From Callorhinchus milii (Eukaryota): 64,000 nt of DNA. Both the position numbers and the translations under genes were made by a program. The stretch covers positions 44,394,001-44,458,000 of the forward strand of contig NW_024704742.1 of the NCBI RefSeq assembly GCF_018977255.1. The letters are read 5' to 3'. Shown here one piece after another: positions 5,444 to 64,000 of this stretch. The notes beneath the pieces are model-generated. The model saw only the letters and a list, made by a program, of their open reading frames with translations. It searched no databases and was not told the origin of the DNA. The first letter of the stretch is position 1. Each line of letters opens with the position of its first letter.

Positions 5444-6231
5444 TAGTATATACAAATACTCTGCAGACAATGTTGGCTCTTATACACTGCTACGGCCAAG
5501 GATATATCATCTGAGGAATGGATGTGGTCAGGGTTGAGTAATGTATGCTGTAGAGGTAGACTGGTGTTCTCCAGAGTGTTTCTGGATTACTTTAATGGCT
5601 CAAAGAGAAATTTCACACTGTTTACTTTTCTTGAAAGTTTTAGGTTTGACAATCTACTTCGCTTGGAGAATTAAATAAATCAAATTAATTGGCAAGAGCT
5701 CCCTCAATGACTCAGTGGACAAATGCACCACAGGACAACATTATAAGTATAAACAACTCATTTGGTAAAAATGTAATCACATTTATTTGTACCTTAATTG
5801 TGTGAATTGATATATTGAGCTCAGCTTCATCTCAGGAGGCAGAGTTTAATATACACTATTTCCTGAATGTGTGAATACTTGGTAGTCAATACTTGTTGCA
5901 ATTCACCAAAATATCAGATTAATTGCAGGGAAAACGCAGTATAAATTGTTTTAGAAGTCATGTTTTTGTGAAGTAATTTGCCTTGGAGCCTGCCAGCCAA
6001 GCTCATGTTGAGGAGATACCTTCACTGGGACATTAATTCACACCATTGCAGTATCAATGCAGGATGGGGGCGAATCAATTCTGATTCTGTTTAGTCTGTT
6101 CCTTAGAGGTTCTTGAGCAGTCCAATGTTTAAGGCACTATTTTTTTTAAATAGTATTAAACAGTTAGTTACTCTCCAAACTTTTTAATAACATCAAAACT
6201 AATATTGTTAAGGGAAGAACCATACAAGCAC

Positions 6232-16249: not shown

Positions 16250-17738
16250 CTCCTAGGGATGCCACAGGGAGGCTTCCTCTGACCCATCTGCAAAGTCCAG
16301 GATTTGTGGCAAATACGGGAAGCGGCTACAGGGAGAGAGGGCTCTGGCCTACACTGACCTTTAGTTAAGCATCTTGGAAGCGAAGTCAGCTTCACAGTGG
16401 GCATGTCTATTTGCCAAGGACCCTCGCATGAGGACCAGGATTGAGCAGCTGTTACTGAGTAAGCCTGGTACATGGCATTGGACTTGGACCTCACGAACAT
16501 CAAGGCACGTCACAATCTGCCCTGTAAAGGTCCTCCCATCACACTGAAGGCAGATGCCCACCAGATAGCTGATAAGGAAACTCTGAGGCTTGGGGTGACA
16601 GTTGCTGGAAGACGTTACCTGGAGTCCGAGTTTGTGAACACACGTTCGTACATCCAATGCCTGGAATCCACCTTGATTGGCCTGCAGACTCCACACCTCC
16701 AATTGGTGGATCCATCGCTCAAAAGGAAGAGATGTGTGCCTGAGCTGCGGTCAGGAAGATGGTGGCAATGTTTTCACCCATTTCATGCTGAGATGCATTG
16801 CTCAGCAGGAAACTTGCAGGGAGTTCTTTGTACCTACCATCCACCTAGTGAGGACTCAAACCGACACTTGTTTGATGTCGAATGAACAACTAGTGACTAT
16901 CCTCCTTGGGTGGGAGGTAAGTGGGGTCTCCTTGGAGCTGAACTGGCTCCAAGGTGACATGCCTAACCATGGAATGTCGGTATTGAGCCAACTCTCTGTG
17001 GTGGTCCCGATAGCCCGGTTCCTGAGCCAGGCGGGTCCGCAGTATTCCAGGGCACTGTTGATGACAGCGCAGCCAGTCTGCTCATCGGCAGGATCTGGAA
17101 GTGCAGACCAGTCACTGGGGGCAGGGATTCATTCCACTCAGCTCCTATTAACCCTGCAAGCCAAAGCTTTAACAGGTAGGGTGGTCCTAGCTGGACAAGA
17201 AGTGGGAAAGCTTGCTGCACAGCAAAATCAATGGCAAGCTATATGGTTTTAGCTGGTTGGACTCCAGCAGCACCCCAACACACACTCTGGGGTCCCCAAG
17301 CCTTGGCTCTTACCAACCTGCACCTAATACTTTCCGGAATTAGGTACAACAACAACAACAAGATTCCATTTATAAAGCGCCTTTCACGTCAGGAGGACGT
17401 CCCAAGGCGCTGCACAGTTGGGTCATGACCCGAGCAGGGGGGAAATGGTCAGGGTGAGGGGAGGGAAGGGAGGGAGCGAGGAGGGGGGAAATGGTCAGGG
17501 TGAGGGGAGGGAAGGGAGGGAGCGAGGAGGGGGAAGAGAGTCGAGAGGGGAGCTGAAGGCTCGGTCAAAGAGAAAAGGTAAGCAGGATATGTCCCTCTAG
17601 GGTGAGAGTGAATCTATTTCTGGGATTTCCATGTGTAGGTGGGATGCATGGAAATCTCAGCTTGGATAGGATACTCTTAAGCATGCTGATGGGTTTCTGG
17701 ATGTGTCAGACACTCAGCTGACCAAAAAACAAAAAAAT
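16250..17738 (+). mobile_element. Unclassified LINE-like element 3' region (CCHC knuckle, long 3' UTR, A-rich end)
   Basis: CLSCGQEDGGNVFTHFMLRC...LVTILLG in ORF 16677-17252; ends ccaaaaaacaaaaaaa; 4 other copies in the window. Confidence 0.65.
17347..17575 (-). mobile_element. Very short young L2 3' end with 5-bp TSD (AGGTA)
   Basis: Near-identical to 59973-60200; AGGTA at 17342-17346 and 17576-17580. Confidence 0.92.
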
Positions 17739-54505: not shown

Positions 54506-55455
54506 TCTGGTTTAAGTGTTTTCCTAGTGAATGTCCTCATACATTCTACAGATGAGTGGTTAGCTCAATTCTCATTTAGTGCCATTTGATTATTTTATTC
54601 CCTTAACTGTTTATCATCGTTCCAGATTTAAAGAAATGAAACGTCCAGTCCAATTATTCTTCATTAAAGCATAAAAACATGACTAGATTTTCACAAGTAT
54701 TTAATCAACCTTTAACTTTCCATCAGTTCTGTTTTCGTCTACAAACTTCTGTAGCAACAGGAGCTGCCACTGCGGGAGTAATTGAAACTCCGATGTCTAA
54801 GAATAGCTTGCTTACCAAAGCAAAATTAAGTTATTCGCAGTCTCCATTTATCCTTATCCGAGGAAAGCACTGTCCCATTCTGAATTCCTGAGGAGAATTC
54901 GTCAAGGTGACAAGGGCAGCCTGAAAGGGAGAGGTTTAGAAATAACTCTGCCAACTAATCGACCAGATATTTTAATTTTACTCAGCTGTATAAAATGTGG
55001 ACTTAGATGCCTAATATTTAAATTACTTCTCCGGTATTTGGAGTTATTGCCTAGCTTAGCTCAGCATAGTTGCAAAAAAGGTTTGGGCACACACTCTTTC
55101 TGGTAAACAAGCTATCTATTCTTCTCCTTTCTCTGAAATCAATTATATGATTGCAATAGTTGCATTTAATATAGTGCCTTATCATGTCTTCATGGAGTCT
55201 CAAAGCGTATCACAGGATTTCACTACAAAGTATAGTGATTGTGTATTTGTAGCTAGTGTGCTGGGACATTGCAGTGTGCAAATTGGTTGTTGTGTTGGCA
55301 CAGTCCTACATTTCACAGAGACAGCTCGACAATATGCTAAAATGCTACAGGAAATATTATCATTATTATATATACATGCAAGGAATATTATCATTATTAT
55401 ATATACAGCAAACCCCTCCACTTATTAAGTGATTCATTATAACACAGGTATGTCA

Positions 55456-55511
55456 ACAACAACAACAACAAGATTCCATTTATAGAGCGCCTTTCACGTC
55501 AGGAGGACGTC
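55456..55511 (-). mobile_element. Minimal young L2 tail insertion (~55 bp)
   Basis: caacaacaacaagattccatttatagagcgcctttcacgtcaggaggacgtc, near-identical to the young L2 terminus. Confidence 0.85.
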
Positions 55512-59037: not shown

Positions 59038-59736
59038 GTGAGTACAGGAGTACAGGAGACTAAAAGAGCACGTTTTGTGATAGTTGCCTAGCACTCTATT
59101 CTTTGGTTCAACTTGTTGCACAGATCATACAGCATTTTGTTATTACGTTCTGAAAGTTTAGTGAGTCACTACTGTTTGTTAAGGCGTTTAACTTGCATTA
59201 TTATATTTAACCTTCACTTGGATAAATGAAGTTACTTTTGGGTAAAAAATACAATGAAGAAGTGTAACAATGCTTCAGCTCAAACTAGGTTTAATACATC
59301 TAATACCCAACACCGCTTTTTTTCAAAATTAACATATAATTTTGTGCCTGTTACATTTTGAGAATTCTTGCATTTGAGATTGTTGTTAAATATGTGCTTT
59401 ATGCTATATATTGTGGGTGATATTGTGACATCATTACATCTGTGTAAATGTAGCATTTGGTGCCCTATCAAGATTTTGCGCATACATTTTTTTACAAGTC
59501 TGTTGTCTCATTCAATAATCTCTCAGTGGTGGGAGCTGAATTGCAAAATGAAGATACATGTTTCAGTATTGCGAATGTCATATTAAATTCATAATTTACT
59601 CTGACATTCAATGTCATTGCAAATTTAAATTGAATAAGAAAATACTGTATAACCTGTGCAACAAGTTGAAACAGAGGTTAGAGTGTTAGGCAAGTATCAC
59701 AAGATGTATTCTTTTATTCTCACCTCCAGTACTCAC
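59038..59736. mobile_element. MITE/foldback-like element with ~105-bp terminal inverted repeats
   Basis: 59038-59144 is the reverse complement of 59633-59736 (e.g. ttcaacttgttgcacag / ctgtgcaacaagttgaa). Confidence 0.75.
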
Positions 59737-59972
59737 GTTGTTCGCAGCAGAATTTTCAAATCCCTGCAGACCAAGCCATGAAGATCAGTGAATCAGCAAC
59801 AATTAAGTCACCATTAGCTTTGCATACAAGAGAACCAATTACCATTCCCAATTTCTCCACTGTTAATCCTTCAACTGTTCCCAGGATCCAATCTGTTGAG
59901 ATTGTGAACATTTATGCTAACTTTTTCAGGAAAAAAACTTTCATTCTTTAACTTTTGCAACACCGCAAACAT

Positions 59973-62900
59973 CAACAACAACAACAACAAGATTCCATTT
60001 ATAAAGCGCCTTTCACGTCAGGAGGACGTCCCAAGGCGCTGCACAGTTGGGTCATGACCCGAGCAGGGGGGAAATGGTCAGGGTGAGGGAAGGGGAGGGA
60101 GCGAGGAGGGGGGAAATGGTCAGGGTGAGGGGAGGGAAGGGAGGGAGCGAGAAGGGGGAAGAGAGTCGAGAGGGGAGCTGAAGGCTCGGTCAAAGAGAAA
60201 GGTTTTGAGACCGGCCTTGAAGGAGGAAAGGGAGGAAGCAAGGCGAAGGCACTGGGGGATAGAGTTCCAGAGCCTCGGGGCTGAGAGGCTGAAGGCCCGA
60301 CCACCGATGGTAGGGCGATTGGGGCGGGGGACGTGGAGCAGACCGGAGCCAGAGGAACGGAGGGTACGGGCAGGTAGGTAGGGGGATAGTAGGTTGGAGA
60401 GGTAGGAGGGAGCAAGGCCGTGAATGGCCTTGTAGGTGAGGATGAGGATCTTGAAATCAATCCTCTGGGGGATGGGGAGCCAGTGGAGGCGAGCGAGGGT
60501 GGGAGTGATGTGGTCCCGAAGCCTGGTGCGGGACAGTACACGAGCTGCAGAGTTCTGAATGACCTGCAGCTTGTGGAGGGAGGTGGCGGGAAGGCCGGCG
60601 AGGAGAGAGTTCCCATAGTCCAGCCTTGAGGTGACAAAGGCGTGGACCAGGGTTTCAGCAGCGTGAGGGGTGAGGTAGTGCCGTAGTCTGGCGATGTTCC
60701 GGAGGTGATGGAAGGCGGTGCCAGTTGTGGTGCGGATGTGAGGGAGAAAGGACAGCTCAGGGTCGAACAAAACGCCGAGGTTCCTGACTGGCTTTGAGAG
60801 GTGGAGAGTGCAGCCTTGGATGCTGATGGTGTCAGCGCCTGAGGTGCGGAGGCGCTGACGTGAGCCAATCAGGAGGGCCTCGGTTTTTCGCACGTTGAGC
60901 TGAAGAAAGTTGTCTCTCGTCCAGGACTCGATGTCGGACAGGCAGCTGTCAGGACATCGGTGGTCGTGGAGTTGAGAGTAGAGGAGGAAAGGTAGAGTTG
61001 GGTGTCATCCGCATACATGTGGAAGTTAACTCCATGTCTGCGGATGATGTCACCAAGGGGGAGCATATAGAGGGTGAAGAGGAGGGGACCGAGGACAGAG
61101 CCCTGAGGGACACCACATGAGACAGTACGGGGGGTGGAGGAGAAGCCATTCGTCGAGACAAAGTGAAGACGGTGAGAAAGGTACGACCTAAACCATTCAA
61201 GGACAGTGCCTTGAAGGTTGAGGTGGGAGGACAAGCGGTGGAGTAGGATAGCGTGGTCGACCGTATCGAATGCTGCCGATAGGTCGAGGAGGACGAGGAG
61301 GCAGAGGGAGCCCTGGTCACAGATGGTCAGGATATCATTGGTGACCTTGACCAGGGCAGTTTCTGTGCTATGGGCAGCACGGAAACCTGACTGAAGGGGT
61401 TCAAAAAGAGAATGGGTGGAAAGGAAAGAGCGCAGTTGGGAGGCGACAACTCTTTCCAAGACCTTGGAGAGAAAGGGGAGGTTGGAGATGGGCCGGTAGC
61501 TTGATAGCTGCGACGCATCAAGGGAGGGTTTTTTCAGGGTGGGCGTGATGGTGGCAGTTTTTAATGGAATGGGGACAGAGCCAGAGGAGAGGGACAGGTT
61601 GATGATGTCAGTGATATGTGGGGCAAGAAAGTGGAGCTGGGAGATAAGGAGTGGAGTGGGGATGGGGTCAAGGGAGCAGGTGGTTGGTTTTAGGGATAGG
61701 ATGAGTTCAGTGACAGAGGGTGGGGAAACGGGTACGAAAGTGTGTAGGGGAGGATGGGTAGGAGTCGGAGTGTGGGAGGGAGGGGGTGGGGGGTTGGTGG
61801 AAGTTGGAGGGGAAGTGACCGCGGAGCGGATTCCCTTGATCTTGGATTCAAGGAAATCCAGCATCTCCTCGCAGTGAAGGTTGGAGGAGATGACCTGCGC
61901 GGGGTGGCGGGGGGGACGGAGGAGTCGGGTTGTGGTGGAAAACAGTAGCCTGGGGTTGTTCTTCGCCTCCAGGATTATCCTGGAGTAGAAGGACGACTTG
62001 GCCGAGGCTAGAGTGGAGCGGTAAATTTTGAGGAGGTCCAGCCAGATTTGTCGGTGGACCGTTAGGCCAGATTTGACACAGGTGCGTTCAGCAGCCCGCA
62101 CCTGGCTTTTCAGTGAGCGGAGGTGGGTGGTGTACCAGGGGGAGGAGCGGGAGTAGGAGACAGTGCGGGAAGTGATGGGGGCAAGAGTATCGAGTGTGGA
62201 GGAGAGGGTATTGTGGAGGAGGGAGAGAGGAGAAGAGGGGTCGGTGAGGGTTGAAGGCCAGAGGGAGAGGAGTTCAGAGGACTCCAAGGCATCGGTTAGG
62301 GATTGTGGGGGTAACTTCTTCCAAGGGCGGTAGAAGATGGTGGTGGGTCTGGTGGAGGTGGGGAGGGGGGTGGAGGTGGTGAAGGAGATGAAGTAGTGGT
62401 CAGAGATGGCCTTGTCGGTAATAGTGACATCCGAGACACTGAGGCCCCGGGTGATCACCAAATCGAGTGGGTGGCCGTGACTGTGAGTGGGGGAGTTTAT
62501 GTGTAAGGAGAGGTTGAGTGAGGAGAGCAGGGAAGAGAAGTCTGTGGAGATGGAGCAGGAGGGGGTGAAGTGTAGGTTAAAGTCGCCCAGGATGATGAGG
62601 CGATCAGAGCAGAGGCAAAGAGATGTGAGGAGTGTTGAAATGTCAGAGATGAAGGTGGGAGAGGTTTTAGGGGGCCGGTAGAGGAGGAGGATTTTAAGGG
62701 AGAGGAATGAGGGGTGGGAGAGGGTGAGGTGCTCAAAGGAGGGGAAAGAGCCAGTGGAGTAGGGGATAGGGCAAGTGGTGTCCTTGAGATAAGGGCAACA
62801 CCACCGCCACGGCGGTTGGGGCGGGGGATGTGGTGGGAGGTGTAGCCGGGTGGCGTGGCCTCCGTGAGGGGGAAGGTGTCGCCTGGGGTGAGCCAGGTTT

Positions 62901-63490
62901 CTGTTAAGGCCATGATATCAACGTTCTCATCAAGGATGAGATCGTTGATGACCAGGGCCTTGTTGCAGAGGGAGCGGACATTTTGCAGTCCGATGTGGAG
63001 GGAGCGGTTGACAGAAGGGTGTGTGGGAGGGGAGGGGGTCCAGGTTGTGAGGCAGGGGTGGGGGAATGGGGATGAGGGAGGAGAGGTTGACTCCCCGGGT
63101 CTGTGTCCGGGGTGGGTGGCGAGTGTGGTGGGGAATGGGGCAGTCGGTGTGGCTGCTGCTGGACAGCCAACGCCGAGTGCCGCGGTGAGCCCGGCGGAGG
63201 ATTCCCAGGCTGGAACAGAGGGAGGTTGTGGGAGGGTCAAGTGGGGATAGAAGACGAGAGGGACGGAGAGAGAGGAGGAGAGAGCGGGAGAGATGCAGAG
63301 GGGGGAGGGTTTGGGGGGAGAGAGGAGGGGGGAGGGAGGGGGTGAGGGGGGGAGGGTCAAAGCGGCAGCCATAGTGCGCACGCGGGGACCGGGAGCGAGC
63401 GGTCAGGTGGATGGCATTATCCCGTAGATTGGGGCAGCGAACGCAACAGGACCATAGTGGGCTCTGATGTGAGCCCTGGGGGGGGGCAGA
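59973..63490 (-). mobile_element. Near full-length L2-clade non-LTR retrotransposon (single ORF: APE endonuclease + RT), young subfamily
   Basis: APE motifs GLQNVRSLCNK, ALTETWL, ILGDFN, HPLDL, SDH. RT motifs [42 protein letters not shown]2 C-terminus SRLDYGN...LHWLPI..RI.FKI. 3' stem-loop plus (TTG)n tail. Confidence 0.95.
60120..63372 (-). pseudogene. L2 endonuclease/reverse transcriptase ORF, frameshifted as assembled (~1085 aa if restored)
   Basis: Track ORFs 62497-63381, 60869-62461 and 60120-60893 join by -1 shifts near 62763 and 60944. Further shifts are inferred in the C-rich N-terminal region. No in-frame stops in the joined path. Confidence 0.85.
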
Positions 63491-64000
63491 GGGTTTTTTT
63501 TTTTTTTTTTTGCGCGCGCACGCACCTGAAAACTAATCTATGACGTCAGCATGAATGTGTTCCAGTTAGCTTGGCACCATCGCTGCTTTTTAAAAAAAAA
63601 TCCATATCAGTGTAGGATTAGACAAGAATTGACAATGGGCAGTCATTGTGCAACATGTTAATCTGCAGATCTAAATGAATAAATGTATTTGATTGTGTTT
63701 TTCTCTTTTAGAAGGCTTCAGAGGCTATGCTCTGGAGCCATAGGTCATGATCCCAAGGGCAGAAAAAAGCTCCCCTGCCAACATAAAGAGTGATAAAATG
63801 ATTTGAAGCAAAGGACAAATAAAAGTTGTCCAAATTAAAATGAAGTAGTACAAACAAGTGTCGGTGTTATTTGCTGGTGGGTAGGAGGAGTAGACTACCC
63901 CACTCAGTTTAGCATCCAATGTTTGCTTGTTCCACATGACTTCCTAAATAAGGTTCTCAACTTATGATGCTGAAGTGAGTATTTTTTTCTTTTCTAAGGA

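Follow-up and report, generated by a model that had tools for sequence, protein, structure and literature searches.

The window analysed here, a stretch of 64,000 nucleotides of Callorhinchus milii DNA, contains on its minus strand at 59973–63547 a C-rich LINE (C content 43%), which is likely to be a young, front-truncated member of an L2 family that has been described under the name CalMil_L2-1. In this reading, the one-base losses that interrupt its open reading frame (ORF) are mostly or all errors of the assembly, and the copy is coding-competent or nearly so, without transcription of its own. Its L2 clade label is taken from the match to the published CalMil_L2-1, and Pfam matches and motifs identified one protein that combines an AP-type endonuclease with a downstream non-LTR reverse transcriptase, as in APE-type non-LTR elements. 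The copy is thus an ordinary young member of a known elephant-shark family, and the family, its lack of an ORF1 and its many intact copies are already in print.

The extent of the element was determined from the published consensus and from contig depth. From 63547 onward, the 5′ part was found by eye to follow the CalMil_L2-1 consensus, in its visible part, through an A run and a C run to about 63450. In run X15, the summed contig depth fell from 8664 in the bin 63386–63546 to 20.5 in the next bin. As the depth was single-copy beyond 63546 and the consensus matched up to this point, the element edge was placed at 63547; summed depth was not used as a measure of copy number. The match was made by eye over approximately 120 bases, the first 400 or so consensus bases having been compared, and the total length fits, because the 3882 consensus bases minus about 280 agree with the 3575 bases of the copy plus those lost. 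Accordingly, the earlier note's description of a full-length element ending at 63490 was not upheld, as the copy starts at 63547, about 280 bases short of the CalMil_L2-1 5′ end. In the visible consensus, these 280 bases are made up of 88-base units, two of them whole and one partial, together with a G-rich stretch (about 44 bases), and a 14-base motif from this part had no match in the window with up to two mismatches allowed. The remaining 5′ UTR (63373–63547, minus strand) includes the A run, the C run and upstream ATGs at 63455 and 63418, with neither the 88-base monomers nor the G-rich stretch, and its fold was no better than that of shuffles (z −1.02). Judged from this alignment, the copy is 5′-truncated inside its UTR, which leaves the ORF complete and the monomers, a presumed promoter, lost.

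The same comparison bears on the number of ORFs. It had been proposed that the element is a single-ORF L2 with no room for an ORF1, and that a consensus extending 5′ into an ORF1 would speak against this. The consensus does extend upstream, but into tandem 88-base non-coding units and not into an ORF1, and the available text of PMC13343379 likewise describes cartilaginous-fish L2s as lacking ORF1; the single-ORF description therefore stands. As a separate observation, positions 63541–63548 (minus strand) at the 5′ junction form the palindrome TGACGTCA, in which a T is contributed by the flank where the consensus has C. We take this palindrome to be a CRE. The visible 5′ part of CalMil_L2-2 also contains TGACGTCA, ahead of an A-rich tract.

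The longest minus-strand frames were 62497–63402, 60869–62917 and 60120–61004, and the peptide path in five steps that had been read from the sequence was recovered across these three frames. With one unknown base supplied at each break, positions 63372 to 60120 give 3258 bases or 1086 codons, as had been calculated, and the sole stop is terminal. The result is a single ORF of 1085 residues read through five breaks (60120–63372), in which every expected catalytic motif is present. ATG 63372 is its probable start, a placement kept tentative because no C. milii protein covering the N-terminal part was found: none was present among the main protein matches (348–1108 residues), and a search for a full-length one among 202 candidates returned one match, a 49% relative. 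The leader nevertheless aligned by eye with 28 homologues of at least 1030 residues that start with Met, which supports the frame first chosen between breaks 1 and 2. The upstream ATGs at 63455 and 63418 open short frames, and in run X6 a second ATG lies in frame at 63360. Judged by eye, the visible part of CalMil_L2-2 seems to have no counterpart of the 63372 ATG and to start from a closer one. Moreover, in several fish L2 proteins (P0034, P0042, P0043, P0047, P0058, P0059, P0062, P0086 and P0114) a hydrophobic, signal-peptide-like leader precedes the YS..LL.LR motif, and a proline-rich tract replaces it here.

In the case of the catalytic domains, the AP-type endonuclease (62395–63000) is split by the break at 62761 and gave one Pfam match per half (PF03372, E 3.4e-9; PF14529, E 1.8e-6), across the frames 62497–63402 and 60869–62917. 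Its motifs are QN (62985), TETW (62904), YRPP (62680), GDFN (62587), LDLV (62467) and SDH (62404). The reverse transcriptase (60770–61534; PF00078, E 5.8e-31), matched in the frame 60869–62917 and split by the break at 60944, has QSGFR (61393), DLSAAFD (61285), GVPQGS (61114), YADD (61015) and NLGV (60782), and its best solved relatives are R2 and LINE-1 proteins. Between the two domains, a region resembling the conserved tail-binding region (cTBR) of ZfL2-2 was tentatively placed at 62072–62140 by the offset of a Pro-Trp pair taken from the available description of ZfL2-2 (PMC4176376). The Pro, Trp, Lys, Arg and Glu of the cTBR are kept, as in 104–106 of 106 homologues. At the place counted as W344 the copy has Cys; this was considered as a crippling change and rejected, since the column is variable (Trp in just 45 of 106 homologues), and the change counts and record 29 gave no run with another letter there at 20% or more. 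Overall, 233 of the 242 columns conserved in 90% of the 106 homologues are kept, and six of the nine exceptions are common to the C. milii proteins covering them. A further observation concerns the DYCN motif (60612–60614, minus strand): its Cys is present in 102 of 102 homologues, and the copy and all five C. milii proteins covering the site read DYGN, so that an invariant cysteine appears from these alignments to be lost family-wide. The best protein matches were from C. milii (93–98% identity), followed by fish and unnamed proteins at 40–48%. No entry named ZfL2 or UnaL2 came up when the clusters of 10 proteins were looked up, and no Rfam family came near its gathering score in 59800–63700 (four weak matches).

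The five breaks were compared with family letters, which were obtained as contigs over 59200–64000 from four public runs (X15, X18, X1 and X6) of the 23 listed; runs with small word shares were left out. For shifts 2 to 5, the family contigs had one extra base (G on the plus strand) in all four runs, exactly where the losses had been put, namely behind plus-strand positions 60944, 62761, 63033 and 63059. On the minus strand, break 2 (63060–63064) and break 3 (63034–63038) are runs of five C where the family has six, break 4 (62762–62765) is a run of four where the family has five, and break 5 (60945) is a single C where the family contigs have CC. Break 1 probably lies in the C-rich, low-complexity tract at 63316–63356, which was skipped in the contig alignment. 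A single contig (X6 record 32) has 346 letters on the 345 bases of 63083–63427 with one gap, which confirms the fifth loss in its direction by length. Records 7 and 30 bridge three break sites with zero substitutions. The claim that all losses fall in C runs was thus correct for three located losses, in runs of four or five C, and not for 60944, where CC became C; at a C content of 43%, there is nearly always some C run close by.

The same comparison makes it hardly credible that the element uses programmed ribosomal frameshifting at the breaks. Every step does go in the same direction, as such a mechanism would have it, but the family lacks the breaks, and its contigs largely refute the idea. 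At break 5, four of four older in-window copies have one more base, and seven of the eight C. milii proteins covering the site read straight through (the eighth has an extra residue), as teleost homologues do, in one frame. Moreover, hardly any product would remain after five shifts in series.

Whether the losses are errors or real decay was harder to decide. The alternative that they are mostly real, the copy having either died by decay once inserted or come from a defective lineage that was copied in trans, is unlikely on balance but retains some weight. In its favor, the share of depth carrying the extra base, 100% in X6, was 8–46% in X15 and 12–30% in X18, low for the deep runs. We attribute this to the clipping of very short contigs where the gap lies, one loose end being listed at 60945; a lineage sharing a loss would give the same picture. 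The family also has shared frameshifts, such as a two-base loss at 60240 inside the ORF, seen in 8% (X15) to 56% (X6) of family depth, and two other C. milii proteins, P0001 and P0004, have frame switches at C runs. Protein P0176 ends in an out-of-frame tail from the 60240 region. By contrast, no protein was found to end in the tail that the 60944 loss would produce (375–1194 residues; four candidates, of which one matched, covering the in-frame part only), a minor point against real losses.

The unique flank carried more weight, because it shows the same one-base losses, which favors assembly error. Behind plus-strand positions 59299 and 59413, a two-base run is read as one in each case. X15 record 9 has 763 letters on the 761 bases of 59200–59960, with no substitution and two extra bases, so that real losses would have to have accumulated against a haplotype without a single substitution. 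The X18 contig has five substitutions in 632 bases and also the extra base at 59413, which is thus present in both runs covering that site; 59299 lies outside its coverage. On the other side, at 63527–64000, X15 showed one substitution and no gap. At 63862, X15 and X18 have T where the window has C, either another haplotype or a substitution error. Other letters at 59671–59686 (five rows, X15) were dropped, as they were read as a flank contig placed twice on an inverted repeat (59038–59144 with 59633–59736). Taken together, two losses in 1235 flank bases match five in 3575 element bases (binomial p = 1.0), and all seven length differences in flank and element are losses, none being of another size or direction. 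A host gene was sought as a second error gauge, but the 140 longest of 426 non-repeat frames gave three weak Pfam matches below the cut-off, and no host gene was found by Pfam in the window.

The number of losses is also too high for the substitution load. Older in-window copies have eight one-base losses per 459 substitutions and the young three have four per 115; given 10–35 private substitutions, five real losses have a probability of at most 0.008, and under the same assumptions the probability of all five being errors is between 0.25 and 0.84. Among the variant rows listed (40 of 114), 16 of 24 coding rows were synonymous against 31% expected (p = 3e-4); five of 29 coding rows with a share below 20% in X15 had been dropped, and with them 17 of 29 are synonymous. 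Mostly synonymous differences point mainly to lineage history under selection and not to decay. The absence of nonsense changes, on which the earlier note had relied, was confirmed, but it is weak evidence alone, since the probability of none is 0.69 at 20 random substitutions and 0.48 at 40.

Therefore, assembly error is the best reading of the losses, and that all five are errors is somewhat more probable than that any is real. Support for the proposed sequencing error thus comes from the family contigs and, above all, from the matching flank losses, and not from the locus itself, since a break and unique flank never occur together in one of the contigs listed. Two events underlie the flank rate, and X15 may come from another animal than the window. 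Real decay also has some room, as the best contigs listed are 1.8–1.9% away from the copy. Furthermore, 1.4 losses per kb genome-wide would leave almost no intact copy, yet 43% were scored intact; thus the errors are local, or the assembly or the definition of intactness differs.

At the 3′ end, the tail forms a stem-loop that contains an internal loop and has five bases in its terminal loop (60005–60040, minus strand; −25.1 kcal/mol, z −4.37), which was matched in stability by none of 200 shuffles. Two of its 12 pairs show a compensatory change among eight in-window copies, and no Rfam family matched the tail. The element ends in a (TTG)6 repeat (59973–59990). A 3′ stem-loop followed by a short tandem repeat, with no poly(A), is the end expected of a stringent-type L2. 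The end of the ORF and the 3′ UTR (60057–60150, minus strand) contain a tandem duplication of about 40 bases, of which the copy at 6225 has a single unit. The candidate target-site duplication is weak, with ATGCT on the left (63548–63552) and ATGTT on the right (59968–59972), one mismatch apart. Among the 15 of 129 joints listed, no empty-site joint was found, both junctions lying in skipped repeats; the joint 60040–63679 was rejected as an empty site owing to wrong coordinates and a side of 25 letters. In X15 and X18, one contig each joins a 25-letter L2 tail piece to 63679 onward, with unknown letters between, and flank contigs near 63679 have about half depth. A weakly founded suggestion is that this joint comes from an allele in which a tail-sharing SINE lies 130 bases upstream of the L2 copy.

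Near-identical truncated copies had been cited as signs of recent family activity, and two exist in the window on the minus strand, at 17346–17575 (97.4% over 230 bases; ACCT flanks on both sides) and 55453–55511 (98.3% over 59 bases; tail only and too short to date). The 230-base copy at 17346 differs from the element by one or two substitutions and a four-base gap and shares its tail variants, which indicates a young subfamily. At least 12 further L2 fragments of several ages (64–97% identity) lie within 1–59900. As for the insertion itself, the X15 and X18 flank contigs run 36 letters past 59960 and then stop, as expected on entry to a high-copy tail, these letters falling in a skipped stretch, and an X15 contig (record 16) holds the 5′ junction. 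The insertion therefore appears to be present in both animals, on flank haplotypes that differ by 0.8%, and this speaks against a very recent event. At 1e-3 per site per million years, the rate given in the available text of PMC5499810, this difference would suggest an age of a few million years, a span that also lends something to the reading of real losses.

These results bear on the claim that the copy could be an active source element. A fully intact, self-transcribing element now making new copies is improbable. The catalytic motifs, the tail stem-loop and the terminal repeat are all present, a 97% identical short copy has the same tail variants, and 175 bases of 5′ UTR and the junction palindrome TGACGTCA are left. 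However, about 280 5′ bases with all monomers are missing, and without monomers the copy cannot regenerate them. In addition, the insertion appears in both runs covering the flank, on the two haplotypes described above, and in the available text of PMC13343379 the ORF2 is scored as intact in 141 of the 326 near-complete copies of CalMil_L2-1, so that nothing singles this copy out. Hence, the claim was not sustained, and a role as source element is unlikely. Slightly less credible still is an intact ORF transcribed from the TGACGTCA junction palindrome or by host read-through, that is, a promoter-swapped helper in a mobile family. If that were true, this copy would still make L2 protein, both for its own RNA and for the SINEs that share its tail, and it would be the first working LINE from a cartilaginous fish.

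We thus return to the reading of a young, truncated copy, belonging to the dominant single-ORF L2 of the elephant shark (CalMil_L2-1), with losses that are mostly or all assembly errors. In the mechanism suggested by its anatomy, one protein with leader, AP endonuclease, tail-binding linker and reverse transcriptase would bind the 3′ stem-loop of its own RNA, nick DNA and prime on the (UUG)n end by target-primed reverse transcription. Copying would have halted with about 280 bases of the consensus still to go, with the ORF complete and the 88-base monomers uncopied, and most or all of the five losses would be errors of the assembled sequence, of the same kind as in the flank. The copy is probably coding-competent or nearly so, yet unable to drive its own transcription, and it is one among hundreds. 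As such, it illustrates clearly how a young retrotransposon can look dead through single-base losses in the assembly, and counts of intact L2 elements in C. milii may for this reason be too low. A literature search, in which subscription journals were thinly covered, found no retrotransposition assay of an elephant-shark LINE. The CalMil_L2-1 family is more useful than this copy, and a monomer-bearing intact sister is the one to assay.

The closest known system is CalMil_L2-1 itself (PMC13343379, Tables S2 and S3; RT cluster 72), which, in the parts available, has the same 5′ UTR from 63547, the same A and C runs and no ORF1, whereas in the copy the 5′ monomers are missing and five single bases are lost; the top ORF2 listed for the family has 1128 residues against 1085 read through here. 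According to the same partial source, L2 makes up 12.7% of the C. milii genome, and cartilaginous-fish L2s sit in clade A beside lineages with an esterase ORF1, so that the single ORF is probably a separate loss. Compared by their described features, the active elements ZfL2-2 of zebrafish and UnaL2 of eel likewise have one ORF with endonuclease and reverse transcriptase, a basic linker with Pro-Trp, a 3′ stem-loop with an internal loop and a short terminal repeat (PMC4176376, PMC1636434; available text). ZfL2-2 is described as having ORF2 only and binding the stem-loop via the linker between endonuclease and reverse transcriptase, with W344 needed for RNA binding (PMC4176376), where the copy has Cys at the counted place. 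UnaL2 is reported to prime on its own terminal repeat, and its terminal loop GGAUA and (UGUAA)n differ from CUCCU and (UUG)n here (PMC1636434). In the portions available, L2 inserts are often 5′-truncated with short target alterations (PMC2666801), and ZfL2-1 makes 5-base duplications (PMC4245944). The C. milii L2 listed in Repbase as L2-2_CM, which may or may not be this same family, is described as having a tail common to the SINEs CmiSINE and SacSINE1-CM (PMC5499810), and a dominant LINE together with a SINE of the same 3′ end had been reported earlier (PMC1845163; both in part). Here, 71–72 contigs (X15, X18) leave the element at 60041 and continue with about 255 different letters, the pattern expected of tail-sharing SINEs. 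Although the clade is different and the promoter role of the 88-base units is presumed, the tandem 5′ units are also like those of rodent LINE-1, which has tandem monomeric 5′ promoters and in which copies truncated below them keep the ORF and lose the promoter.
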